A DNA stretch of 64,000 nt from Nitrospirota bacterium (GTDB lineage: Bacteria > Nitrospirota > UBA9217), in assembly GCA_963840455.1 (NCBI GenBank), contig CAWIYV010000009.1, positions 376,712-440,711 on the forward strand, given 5' to 3'. The position numbers and the translations under genes were made by a program. Position 1 is the first letter of the stretch, and every line of letters begins with the position of its first letter. Positions 10,702-61,064 of the stretch are shown here, piece by piece. The notes under the pieces are model-generated. The model searched no databases and was not told where the DNA came from. It was given only the letters and a program-made list of their open reading frames with translations.

Positions 10702-11445
10702 ATGCAATTCGCGCGAAAACTGCTCTTCATCGCACTGTTCATATCGGTTTTTGTTCCCGTCACGACGCCCTCGGCAGAAAAGGAGTTCCGCGTCATCGCG
10801 ACCGAGGAGCTCAAGGCTATGCTGGACGGGAAGAAGGACTTCGTCCTCGTGGACACGCGCACGGCCGAAGAGTATTAGGAGGCGCACATCAAGGGAGCGA
10901 TGAGCATCCCGGAAAAGAGCTTCGAGAACCAGCTCGCCCTTCTGCCGGCGGACAAGAACGCCCTGATCGTGCTGTACTGCAACGGCGTCAAGTGCGGCAA
11001 GAGCAGGAAGTCGGCAAAGAAGGCCGAGGCAGCAGGGTACATGAACCTGGTCATCTACGCCGAGGGATTCCCTGTCTGGGAGGAAAAGGGCTTTGCCATC
11101 GTTGCCGGGCCGGAGCACGCGAAGAAGATCGAGACCGCGAAGGTGAAGACCTACCGAGCTCAAGCAGCTCCTGGATACGAAGTAGCGCGAACATCGTGAT
11201 CGTGGACGTACGGGACGAGGCGGAGTTCAGGGAAGGGCACATCCCCACGTCGATCAACATCCCCGTCGAGACCTTCGCGCTCCGCTCCGAGGTCCTACCG
11301 AAGGAGAAAGAAGATCATCGTGTACTGCAACACCGGCGGCAGGAGCTACAACGCCTACCGGAAGCTGATGAAGCTCGCTTATCCGAGCATCGCTCAGGCG
11401 ACCTTTGCTGAGTGGAAGGAAGCGGGCATGCCCGTCGAGAAGTAG
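10702..11445 (+). pseudogene. Exported tandem-rhodanese sulfurtransferase, disrupted
   Basis: GGAGG RBS and signal peptide. Two rhodanese domains (YCNGVKCGKS; YCNTGGRS) are reconstructed across an in-frame TAG at 10876-10878 and frameshifts near 11150-11185 and ~11310. Confidence 0.8.
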
Positions 11446-12677: not shown

Positions 12678-12727
12678 CGTAGATACAGTTTGCTGAAGGA
12701 GCAGTGCTGTCAACGAGGAGACGTTAT

Positions 12728-12822
12728 GACTGGCTGTGTCGGCTGGCGCCGGCTGCAGGCTTCAATCCTGTAGGACTGCCGTGAAGGGCATGTCATCGGT
12801 TCGATTCCGAAGTCAGTCTCCA
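12728..12822 (+). tRNA. Atypical tRNA(UCA): tRNA-Sec-like body, 8/4 fold, U73
   Basis: Acceptor GACTGGCT/AGTCAGTC (8 bp); D stem GTCGGC/GCCGGC (6 bp) with TGGC loop; anticodon stem TGCAGG/CCTGTA with loop CTTCAAT; long variable arm; T stem TCGG/CCGA (4 bp) with TTCGATT loop; ends T-CCA. Confidence 0.9.
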
Positions 12823-58704: not shown

Positions 58705-59118
58705 ATGCGAACCATGAATGCAGTGCTCGGCCTGCTGGTCGTGCTCGCGCTCTGCGGCATCCTGCGGACGACGCAGGCAGCTGCAGCGGACGACGTTACG
58801 CGGATCCCGAAGGAGGAGGCGAAGGCCCTGCTGGGTAAGCCGAACGTGGTCTTCCTCGATGCCCGGGTCGATAAGGCCTGGAAGGGGAGCAGCCGGAAGA
58901 TCCTGGGCGCGGTGCGGGTCGACTTGTTCGACCTCGAGACCCAGGCCGCGAACTACGGCAAGGATACGACATTCATCATCTACTGAACGTGAGCCAATGA
59001 AGGCACGAGCGTCCGGGTGGCGCTCAGGCTGATCGAGATGGGATACAAGAACGCCTATGCGCTGAAGGGCGGCTGGTGGGAATGGGTTGGTGCCGGCTAC
59101 CCAATGGAGTCCAAATGA
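58705..59118 (+). CDS. Exported rhodanese-like selenoprotein with U-T-U motif (predicted Sec94, Sec96)
   Basis: In-frame TGA at 58984 and 58990. Read-through gives IIY-U-T-U-ANEGTSVRVA...GYKNAYALKGGW.EW..AGYP.E. SECIS-like hairpin at 59007-59025. The final TGA overlaps the next ATG. Confidence 0.85.
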
Positions 59119-59636
59119 CGCGCTCCATGCTCGCCCTTGCGATCGCGTTCCTGCTGGCCTCGTCGCCTGTGGTCCTGACGGCAGCGGAGAAAGGGCAGGA
59201 GAAGGTCCTGCTGGTCCACGTGACCACGCTCCTGGACAGCGACCAGGATCGCACAGCGCTGGTCTTCCGCGTGGTCGCTGCCGGCCTCAAGAAGGGCAGA
59301 CACGTCATCCTGCTCTTCGACGCCCAAGGTGTTGCGTCGCTCAAGATCGGCAGATGGTACGGCGGGCACTCGACGCCCATCGACCGGGTCTTGATCTCCC
59401 CGCAGGACCGGAAGGACCTGGCAGCAATGCTTGGCACTGCTCCGGAGGAGATCCCGGACATCTACGGCAGCCTGCTTGCGTTCCTGAAGGGCAGGGGAGC
59501 GGTGGTCTGCGCGTCAAAACGGGCGCTTGAGATGGCTGGCCTCTGGCCGGACCGATTCGATCAGATCGCGGAGCCGGCAAGCGAGGAGCGCATGCTGGAG
59601 CTCCTCGGCCGGGCGAACGCATACCTTGCGTACTGA
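59115..59636 (+). CDS. Exported DsrE-family protein
   Basis: Signal peptide; LLVHVT...GLKKGRHVILLFDAQGV...GAVVCAS; ATGA overlap with the rhodanese gene. Confidence 0.75.
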   Translation: MTRSMLALAIAFLLASSPVVLTAAEKGQEKVLLVHVTTLLDSDQDRTALVFRVVAAGLKKGRHVILLFDAQGVASLKIGRWYGGHSTPIDRVLISPQDRKDLAAMLGTAPEEIPDIYGSLLAFLKGRGAVVCASKRALEMAGLWPDRFDQIAEPASEERMLELLGRANAYLAY

Positions 59637-59756
59637 CCGTTGAGGGAGCTTCAATGTGCAGGTATGTCAACGTGAAGACTCTGCTCCGAGAGATTTCGGC
59701 AAGTCGGACATAAACATGAAAGATTCGACTCTCGAGGAGCTATTGTGAGGTTTGGC

Positions 59757-60599
59757 ATGAGCGATCAAGTGGAAAAGAACATCGCTGCTCCCGTCTGACC
59801 GCCTAAAGGCGGCACTGGAGGTTGCCGACTGGATATTCCCGCGAAGCTCCCGGTTGATGCGCCCGCGGACCTGGAGGAGATCAGAAAAGCCATACGGAGC
59901 AAGTACGCTGAGGTCTCCGTATCAGCAGCAGGAAAATTCTCCTATCCCACAGGCAGGGAGGGAGCAGCGGCCCTGGGGTATGACCCGGCGATCATCGGAC
60001 GTGCGCCCGCGCGAATCTTCGAATCATCGTGCGGGGTCGGCAATCCGTTCTCCCTGGGCGCTATCCGGACAGGAGAGTCGGTGCTGGATATCGGGTGCGG
60101 AGGCGGTCTTGATCTGTTCGTTGCCGCAACGTTGGTGGGCGAGAGCGGCCGTGTCTCGGGGATCGATCTGACGGAAGACATGGTCCGGCGAGCACAGGAG
60201 AACCTTACGCTCGCCGGCATGAAGAACGTTGAGGTCACGAAGGTCGATTCGGACATCATCCCCCATGCGGATCATACCTTTGATGTCGTACTCTCGAACG
60301 GCGTCATAAACCTGTCCCCGCGCAAGGAGATCGTCTTCCGGGAGATCTATCGTGTCCTGAAACCCCGAGGAAGGCTGCAATTCGCCGATGTTGTCCTGGA
60401 GAACGAACTGCCGTTGTCGCTCGCAGGCAGCGCCGAAGCGTGGTCACAATGAATCGGCGGCGCGATCCCGGTCGGGGATCAGGTGCGGCTGCTGAGAACC
60501 GCCGGTTTTGAAGATGTTGCATGGCTGGGAATGACCGACTTCCGGTCGTCACCCTACACGGTCGGTGCGTTGTTCAAGGCGAGGAAGCCAAAGAAGTAA
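59757..60599 (+). CDS. ArsM-like SAM methyltransferase, predicted selenoprotein (Sec14, Sec232)
   Basis: One frame with TGA at 59796 and 60450. KY.EVS...F.YPTGR...LGY...CGVGNPF, VLDIGCGGG.D, WSQ-U-IGGA...AGF. A hairpin starts 11 nt after each TGA. Confidence 0.82.
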
Positions 60600-60656
60600 C
60601 ATTTCCAAACGGTGTCAAATCTTTACCGTTGACATGGATGGCCGCGGATACTCCCA

Positions 60657-61064
60657 ATGCATTATCTCATCAGAAGTTTCCTTGTCTGGCTGCTGTTCAT
60701 CCCGATGGCGATAGCGAACGGCGCGCTGCGGGACCTCGTGCTCACCTCGGCGCTGGGCGACACGCTGGGACGGACTGTCAGTTCGCTGACGCTATCACTC
60801 CTGATCTTCGGCCTGACGCTGCTCCTGGTGGACCGTCTCGGTGTCAACACGCGGGCGGGGTATCTGGTGGTGGGCGCGTTCTGGCTGGTCCTGACGCTGC
60901 TCTTCGAGGTGTCGTTCGCCCTGCTGGTGATGGGCCATCCCATGGACGAGCTGCTGCATGACTATGATATCTTTCGAGGTAGGCTGTGGCTGATCGCGCT
61001 GGCGACGACATTCTTCGCGCCGCTCCTTGCCGGCAAGATGAGAAAGCGACTACACACCGACTGA
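60657..61064 (+). CDS. Hypothetical membrane protein
   Basis: AIANGALRD...W.VLTLLFE...LL.DYDI.RGRLW; about four TM segments. Confidence 0.8.
   Translation: MHYLIRSFLVWLLFIPMAIANGALRDLVLTSALGDTLGRTVSSLTLSLLIFGLTLLLVDRLGVNTRAGYLVVGAFWLVLTLLFEVSFALLVMGHPMDELLHDYDIFRGRLWLIALATTFFAPLLAGKMRKRLHTD

Follow-up and report, generated by a model that had tools for sequence, protein, structure and literature searches.

Can a bacterial reading frame crossed by two distant TGA codons encode one intact protein, and what would such a protein do? This question is raised by a locus of a Nitrospirota bacterium (GTDB lineage UBA9217; assembly GCA_963840455.1, contig CAWIYV010000009.1, positions 376,712 to 440,711 of the forward strand). 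The whole 64,000-nucleotide (nt) stretch that was analysed is called the window below. An initial annotation of this DNA had proposed that the gene encodes a selenocysteine (Sec)-dependent metal(loid) methyltransferase related to ArsM, and the Sec-dependent reading is supported here: since orthologs retain both TGAs, the genome encodes the Sec machinery and no other usable start is available, the two UGAs are almost certainly read as Sec, as judged by comparative sequence analysis. The broader reading also appears likely, namely that SelB and tRNA-Sec decode both in-frame UGAs, each with the help of the hairpin beginning 11 nt after it, in a single intact gene for a methyltransferase of the ArsM/AS3MT fold, with a putative functional role for a Sec-bearing N-terminal arm. 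The corresponding features are collected in Table 1.

Table 1. Position in the window of the methyltransferase gene, its main elements and the tRNA-Sec gene (SD, Shine-Dalgarno; SAM, S-adenosylmethionine; SECIS, selenocysteine insertion sequence; bSECIS, bacterial SECIS; pLDDT, predicted local distance difference test)
Feature	Position	Strand	Basis
Whole gene, ArsM-like SAM methyltransferase, predicted Sec at residues 14 and 232	59757..60599	+	translation, family matches, orthologs, fold
SD-like GAGG, 6 nt 5' of ATG	59747..59750	+	read from sequence
ATG start	59757	+	13 codons before TGA1
N-terminal arm, residues 1-36, Gly/Pro-rich, U14 (...APV-U-PPK-GG...) and C23	59757..59864	+	pLDDT <50
TGA1, predicted Sec14	59796..59798	+	TGA in 11/11 loci; W in 16/16 full-length metagenome proteins
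Competing hairpin CCGCC-UAAA-GGCGG directly 3' of TGA1, sharing 59810-59812 with the SECIS-like stem	59799..59812	+	in minimum-energy fold
SECIS-like hairpin 1, 5-bp stem CGGCA/UGCCG, 8-nt loop CUGGAGGU	59810..59827	+	stem kept in 89% of cells, 11 loci
Cys92 codon (C-G-V-G-N-P), two residues before the ArsM Cys72 place	60030..60032	+	PDB alignment: CmArsM 72 opposite V94
SAM-binding motif VLDIGCGGG, residues 109-117	60081..60107	+	PF13847 6e-30; columns invariant in alignments
Gly182 codon (S-N-G-V), place of ArsM arsenic-binding Cys174	60300..60302	+	PDB alignment; S-[NS]-G in 27/27 members
TGA2, predicted Sec232 (WSQ-U-IGGA), place of ArsM Cys224, catalogued UxxG Sec site	60450..60452	+	PDB alignment, orthologs, table of PMC13188914
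SECIS hairpin 2, 6-bp stem GAUCCC/GGGAUC, loop GGUCG, 17 nt UGA-to-loop	60464..60480	+	bSECIS rules satisfied in 11/11 loci
TAA stop	60597-60599	+	frame translation; protein end ...KPKK
tRNA-Sec, anticodon TCA	12727..12821	+	ARAGORN

The frame comprises 280 codons followed by TAA, with TGA at codons 14 and 232. Its extent and TGAs are located as the initial annotation had given them, and all the motifs it had picked out could be found (KYAEVS, FSYPTGR, LGY, CGVGNP, SNGV and WSQ-U-IGGA). The claim that translation must begin upstream of the first TGA holds as well: the first in-frame ATG, GTG or TTG after TGA1 is the GTG at 60081, 95 codons on, well inside a conserved core that begins near residue 37. 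The same is seen in five out of 11 loci, where 56-96 codons separate TGA1 from the first such codon, again well inside the core. An ATG is present 11-15 codons upstream of TGA1 in eight of the 11, mostly with a purine-rich stretch ahead of it.

A six-frame search of 60 related genomes provided 10 orthologs, from the same family as the window's organism but from other genera, with 53-64% identity. Homologs might have started after codon 14 or ended at WSQ; the DNA of all 10 keeps both TGAs (11/11 loci with the window's gene), the first in the context ...P-x-U-x-P-x-G-G... close to the start and the second in AWSQ-U-IGG towards the end. Sixteen metagenome proteins from a 5.8-billion-protein collection, covering at least 86% of the query with 52-74% identity, have W at both sites (16/16), which points to gene calls made with a code in which TGA means Trp, while four shorter aligned entries (193-216 residues) terminate exactly at WSQ. 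The TGAs might also have been missing from independent DNA. Contigs of two other studies span the whole gene (X3 record 8, with 25 differences, and X8 record 17, with 35), and no TGA is affected by any of the differences listed for them, one of which turns the TAA stop into TAG. Run X1 covers parts of the gene only, and the two short pieces in the RNA run X20 come from a relative and do not indicate expression of this gene.

The same data bear on the most improbable of the alternatives, a pseudogene, an assembly error or a TGA read as a standard amino acid. Both TGAs fall in the same columns in 11/11 loci, with conserved protein on either side, and neither is touched by the differences listed for the two contigs. 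TGA is indeed used as a terminator in this lineage: it closes four of eight neighbouring open reading frames (ORFs) that were checked (three of them without family match), for example a cytochrome c7-like gene, and the orthologs L014 and L016-L019 themselves terminate at TGA. The Sec machinery is complete, the window's genome encoding SelB (383.5 bits, cut-off 242), SelA (606.9, cut-off 268) and SelD (359.8, cut-off 125), and the SelD gene itself contains a TGA. Such an alternative would be favoured by the existence of decayed copies, one frameshifted in another genome and one reduced to a 53-residue relic in the window's own genome, and by the locus L013, which has no upstream start and ends early.

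Three incomplete copies deserve description in their own right. L175 (G006:C189:15754-16221) is an ortholog with the N-terminal TGA and the arm, frameshifted after CGVGN, either a pseudogene or an assembly error. L176 (G000:C11:872625-872789, in the window's genome) is the 53-residue relic, 75% identical to residues 30-82 with a TAG inside, and looks like a decayed second copy. Genome G021 has, besides its complete gene, a second, incomplete copy some 2 kb away (G021:C3:655969-656382), which covers residues 141-278 and includes the TGA.

How the ribosome would recognise the two UGAs was addressed through the hairpins, which lie where the initial annotation had placed them, each beginning 11 nt after its TGA. 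Each locus was compared with the bSECIS rules given in Fig. 2 and section 5 of PMC13188914, coded without bulges. They call for at least 4 bp in the stem, 3-9 nt in the loop with a G within its first two positions, 16-37 nt of spacing and an energy no higher than -7.5 kcal/mol. The second site satisfies them in 11/11 loci, where UGA and loop are 17-18 nt apart and the loop is mostly GGUCG, against a background of 301 out of 2784 other codon positions of the same genes (10.8%). Its stem is paired in 98.5% of cells and includes one compensatory pair (GC 6, AU 3, GU 2). Across the wider Sec clade (56 sequences), the hairpin found at this distance from the UGA is another one in the sister clades, CCGGGAA...UUCCUGG, which argues for selection on structure rather than on sequence. 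Folding of the single sequence is no better than that of shuffles (z of -1.24 and -0.71 for the two sites), so the case rests on comparison; Rfam gave no match within 59700-60650 at E up to 10.

As to the nature of the enzyme, Pfam recognises generic SAM-methyltransferase domains, such as PF13847 at 6e-30. Searched against the selenoprotein methyltransferase families of NCBIfam (release 20), the protein is matched best by three models of ArsM-like double or triple selenoproteins, NF041537 (295.4 bits, cut-off 510), NF041536 (278.2, cut-off 575) and NF047649 (273.2, cut-off 460), followed by NF008823 (201.2, cut-off 263); all these matches are below cut-off and restricted to residues 37-279. 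Among solved proteins, ArsM and AS3MT are nearest both in sequence and in fold. The AlphaFold2 (AF2) model has a predicted template modelling score of 0.83, with a confident core and residues 1-36 below a pLDDT of 50, hence disordered; its top Foldseek matches are 5evj, 4fr0 and 6cx6, with E of 1e-18 and a template modelling score of about 0.65.

The methylation of As(III) by ArsM needs all four cysteines, as described with a disulfide-cascade model in PMC6138428. Of the four (Cys44, 72, 174 and 224 of CmArsM), the fourth alone is kept, as Sec232. Gly182 stands opposite Cys174, and Val94 opposite Cys72, with Cys92 two residues earlier; at the place of CysA there is no Cys. The two replacements that the initial annotation had seen, Gly in SNGV for the first ArsM Cys and UGA for the Cys of W..CIAGA, thus correspond to Gly182 and Sec232, and its opinion that this is probably not a standard ArsM is borne out by the NF008823 score (201 against 263), by the SNCV Cys turned into Gly and by the GCGNP Cys shifted by two residues. 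The methyltransferase is thus ArsM-like in predicted sequence and fold, with a putative soft metalloid as substrate, and fails the tests that define ArsM. A canonical four-Cys ArsM is encoded elsewhere in the window's genome (380.4 bits to NF008823), next to CcdA-like and thioredoxin-like ORFs, named by eye from their translations.

The arm was compared over a family of 27 members, made of the 11 loci and the 16 metagenome proteins with W, the rows of L013, L014 and L019 being corrected from ortholog translations. C-x-V-G-N-P and S-[NS]-G are found in 27/27 and CysA in 0/27. On the arm itself, U-x-P is kept in 25/27, some Cys lies within 15 residues in 26/27, and a Cys is at +9 in 15/27. The extra N-terminal arm announced as U-x8-C is therefore there, with its Sec, and what recurs is U-x-P with a nearby Cys; the U-x8-C spacing is not a conserved feature.

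These figures are central to the possibility, less likely than not, of a true arsenite methyltransferase devoted to arsenic detoxification, in which Sec and the arm would replace the usual cysteines. The three chalcogen ligands U14, C92 and U232 could form a three-coordinate As(III) site, Sec232 stands where ArsM has its As-binding Cys224, ArsM and AS3MT provide the closest solved structures, and relatives are named 'arsenite methyltransferase' by JGI. Against this stand the replacement of Cys174 by Gly in 27/27 members and the absence of CysA in 27/27, the NF008823 score below its cut-off, the four-Cys ArsM (380 bits) already available in the same genome and the lack of ars genes nearby.

The arm has a close counterpart in the UXPK-star double selenoprotein (NF047649), which the table of PMC13188914 credits to Haft & Tolstoy 2025. 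In the window the arm reads U-P-P-K, and in the deep-branching members P0098 and P0105 it takes the form C-x-L-G-x-G-G-U-x-P-K, close to the C-terminal tail C-x-P-G-G-x-U-x-P-K of UXPK-star. Thirty UXPK-star loci were sampled and 28 could be parsed; the tail, directly followed by the stop, has a Cys at -6 in 27/28 and U-x-P-K in 23/28, and the canonical CysA is present in 25/28. In the window's phylum, 251 genomes yielded no UXPK-star protein above cut-off. One was found (536.7 bits, cut-off 460) among 25 more distant loci (L063-L087) classed by eye, and members above cut-off occur in 35 of the 83 genomes of its class. The other distant loci are single-Sec forms without arm (15), fusions to an AhpD domain with C-x-x-U (3), Cys-type forms (2), disrupted frames (2) and genes cut by a contig end (2). 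One single-Sec relative, L072 (JAADHK010000058.1), has a frame that passes a TGA after ...RESSP and continues for 8 codons to TAA, which may be another C-terminal Sec tail or a plain stop.

In a quick IQ-TREE analysis of 78 core sequences, the N-arm family groups with the arm-less L063 (support 99), apart from a second group in which UXPK-star (99) is joined by the single-Sec and AhpD forms (98). The tree leaves out L154, L157, L025, L027 and L030 (unparsed), L068 (the same gene as L143), L077 and L087 (partial), L082 and L083 (disrupted), L081 and several distant Cys-type loci (unselected) and P0025 (internal deletion).

Only the N-terminal Sec arm appears to be new, and the second Sec position is already catalogued as 'UxxG' in the table of PMC13188914. 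The ArsM-type selenoproteins listed in that 2026 review are a one-Sec ArsM, UXPK-star (two Sec), ArsM/DUF2284 (two Sec) and ArsM/AhpD (three Sec). A form with an N-terminal Sec was not found in the passages and table of PMC13188914, NCBIfam release 20, the truncated names at NCBI or a literature search, a scope outside which Haft & Tolstoy 2025 lies; PMC1976440 and PMC13326102 hold no such methyltransferase.

Several observations weigh against the proposed reading, most of them directed at the first Sec site. The bSECIS rules are satisfied there in only six of the 11 loci, and the window's own hairpin fails two of four rules, with no G in the first two loop positions (CUGGAGGU) and -7.2 kcal/mol at best for a limit of -7.5. 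This hairpin is weak (-5.9 to -7.2 kcal/mol) and competes with a stronger one at 59799-59812. Its stem has little covariation and is made of Gly-Gly and Cys-Arg codons, so that protein constraint could explain it. No Cys form of Sec14 came out of a profile of the arm and first helix run against 1.84 billion representatives, which gave 64 hits, a short profile of this kind having low sensitivity; only three of the 64 reach the Sec14 column, all with W, and there is no classical Sec/Cys pair. Alignment with Cys homologs thus succeeds for U232, opposite ArsM Cys224, and leaves U14 without a Cys counterpart. L063, in the same clade, and every single-Sec relative examined have no arm and start about five residues before the core, which means that the core can work armless. 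The AF2 model places no position of the arm, whose contact with the active site we only infer. At the level of the locus, the gene was not found in 5/5 same-genus genomes searched (completeness 88-100%), a patchy distribution, and no conserved neighbour emerged when the window was compared with six loci having flanks of about 8 kb, the window's neighbours not being arsenic genes. Eleven further differences in the X3 and X8 contigs are outside those listed.

One of these points has a counterpart. The loop of the competing hairpin is too near the UGA for the bSECIS spacing of 16-37 nt, and this hairpin would probably be melted by a ribosome positioned on the UGA. Synteny within the genus is uninformative, the single syntenic contig stopping just before the gene. 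The locus L174 had seemed to be a Cys form of the arm, having no stop codon and apparently aligning from residue 10; it proved to be a distant, different methyltransferase.

The first-site difficulties would be accounted for if only TGA2 were a Sec codon, TGA1 ending a conserved 13-codon leader ORF, the hairpins being regulatory and the enzyme starting at a non-canonical downstream codon. The failure of the window's first hairpin in the strict bSECIS test, the lack of a Cys homolog of the arm, the arm-less start of L063 and of the single-Sec forms just before the core, and the habit of gene callers to start proteins after TGA1 all agree with such an arrangement, which nevertheless looks improbable. 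The window has no ATG, GTG or TTG between TGA1 and codon 109, and in five of the 11 loci this gap amounts to 56-96 codons. The frame remains open after the TGA with a protein-like residue pattern, P-P-x-G-G-x-G, in which third codon positions vary except within the stem. The stop of a leader ORF could be TAA or TAG, whereas TGA is invariant in 11/11 loci.

With Sec at both sites, a mechanism can be proposed. The catalytic centre would consist of Sec232, at the place of ArsM Cys224, and Cys92. The roles of the missing canonical CysA and arsenic-binding Cys174 would have passed to the mobile, disordered N-terminal arm with Sec14 and, usually, a nearby Cys. By swinging into the active site, the arm may supply it with a third soft ligand, a resolving selenol, or both. 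A soft metalloid (an As(III)-like or Se/Te species) would be bound between Se and S ligands while SAM donates the methyl group; the transient oxidised intermediate would then be reduced as an Se-S or Se-Se bond forms with the arm, and this bond would be re-reduced by a thioredoxin-type partner. Such a scheme would parallel the ArsM disulfide cascade, and the sister families may be seen as placing a Cys/Sec arm C-terminally or fusing AhpD instead. The role given to the arm is suggested by the missing cysteines, the parallel C-terminal UXPK-star tail, the fused redox domains and the ArsM cascade model. More speculatively, and with less than even confidence, the N-terminal arm and the UXPK tail could be interchangeable swinging arms, having arisen in two clades of a single enzyme family, that replace the lost ArsM cysteines as substrate-delivery or resolving groups, with an obligate Sec14 lacking any Cys counterpart, a substrate that would be a soft chalcogen or metal species other than arsenite (e.g. 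selenide or tellurite) and, as partners, small thioredoxin-fold selenoproteins of TsoC type.

Candidate partners were sought around the gene and in related loci. The flanking ORFs 59076-59636 and 60657-61064 match no Pfam or NCBIfam family. The former (+, 186 residues) has a signal-peptide-like hydrophobic N-terminus, as seen by eye, and is in the same frame as the methyltransferase, with stops between. An AhpD CxxU domain is fused in three relatives. In L011 (G021:C3) and L012 (G017:C45), the frame extends upstream, past a third TGA, to include a domain of some 85 residues (...DPxGxRU), a borderline TsoC match (45.1 bits for a cut-off of 45 with hmmscan, 37 bits in the six-frame search). Since L012 has no start codon within 38 codons before TGA1, the nearest being at least that far, it likely encodes a three-Sec fusion protein.

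A link with the Tso operon was considered and set aside. The TsoC match is borderline; TsoA gave no match, a weak result since the same search gave no hit in control genomes either; and TsoB is not found above cut-off in five genomes. Two small TGA-containing genes lie outside the window in the same genome (G000:C11:192242-192481 and 196154-196405); one is TsoC above cut-off (69.5 bits) and the other shares 60% identity with the fused domain of L011. The tRNA-Sec gene shares the window with the methyltransferase gene, 47 kb away. About 1.6 kb from this tRNA gene, positions 10765-11142 (+) are rhodanese-like, scoring 70.5 bits with the corresponding part of the TsoB model, and have a TAG in frame.

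In public annotation, the enzyme appears as fragments of 189-216 residues lacking both seleniums, so that surveys of arsenic and selenium cycling by microbes of wetlands and sediments miss it. If the arm model is true, a methyltransferase served by a terminal selenol arm would be available in a compact, testable form, sister clades having adopted the same solution at one or the other terminus of the protein. A Sec with no Cys counterpart bears on why Sec is retained, and the locus questions whether the whole Sec-type 'ArsM' clade lacking Cys174 acts on arsenic.

Among known systems, canonical ArsM/AS3MT (CmArsM 4fr0, CrArsM 5evj, human AS3MT 8xt7; NF008823) has the same fold and SAM motif, with Sec232 opposite Cys224. 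The window's protein differs by Gly for Cys174, Val for Cys72 with a Cys two residues earlier, no Cys44 and a score below cut-off. The single-Sec UxxG arsenite methyltransferase selenoprotein (listed in PMC13188914 with its reference 87, Fomenko et al. 2007) has its Sec at the same active-site position, with one Sec and no arm. The AhpD (NF041537) and DUF2284 (NF041536) families share this UxxG Sec and also add a Sec-bearing redox module to the same core. In their case, however, the module is a fused C-terminal domain, whereas the window's protein has a 36-residue arm at its N-terminus and no AhpD or DUF2284 domain, the match being limited to the methyltransferase part. UXPK-star (NF047649) has the same ArsM-like core (C-x-V-G-N-P, S-N-G, W-x-x-U-x-G-G), and its second Sec likewise belongs to a Gly/Pro-rich terminal arm that has U-x-P(-K) and a Cys close by. 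Its arm is C-terminal, the Sec lying three residues before the stop, whereas that of the window's family is N-terminal; canonical CysA is found in 25/28 there and 0/27 here, and the clades are separate (99 each). The window's protein aligns at 273.2 bits with model positions 8-250 of 283 and ends ...KPKK-TAA without Sec. Mobile chalcogen tails are also known elsewhere, such as the C-terminal Gly-Cys-Sec-Gly of thioredoxin reductase and the C-terminal Cys pair of MerA. With these unrelated folds and chemistries the likeness, that of a flexible terminal Cys/Sec arm which brings electrons or a soft metal to a buried active site, is one of analogy only.

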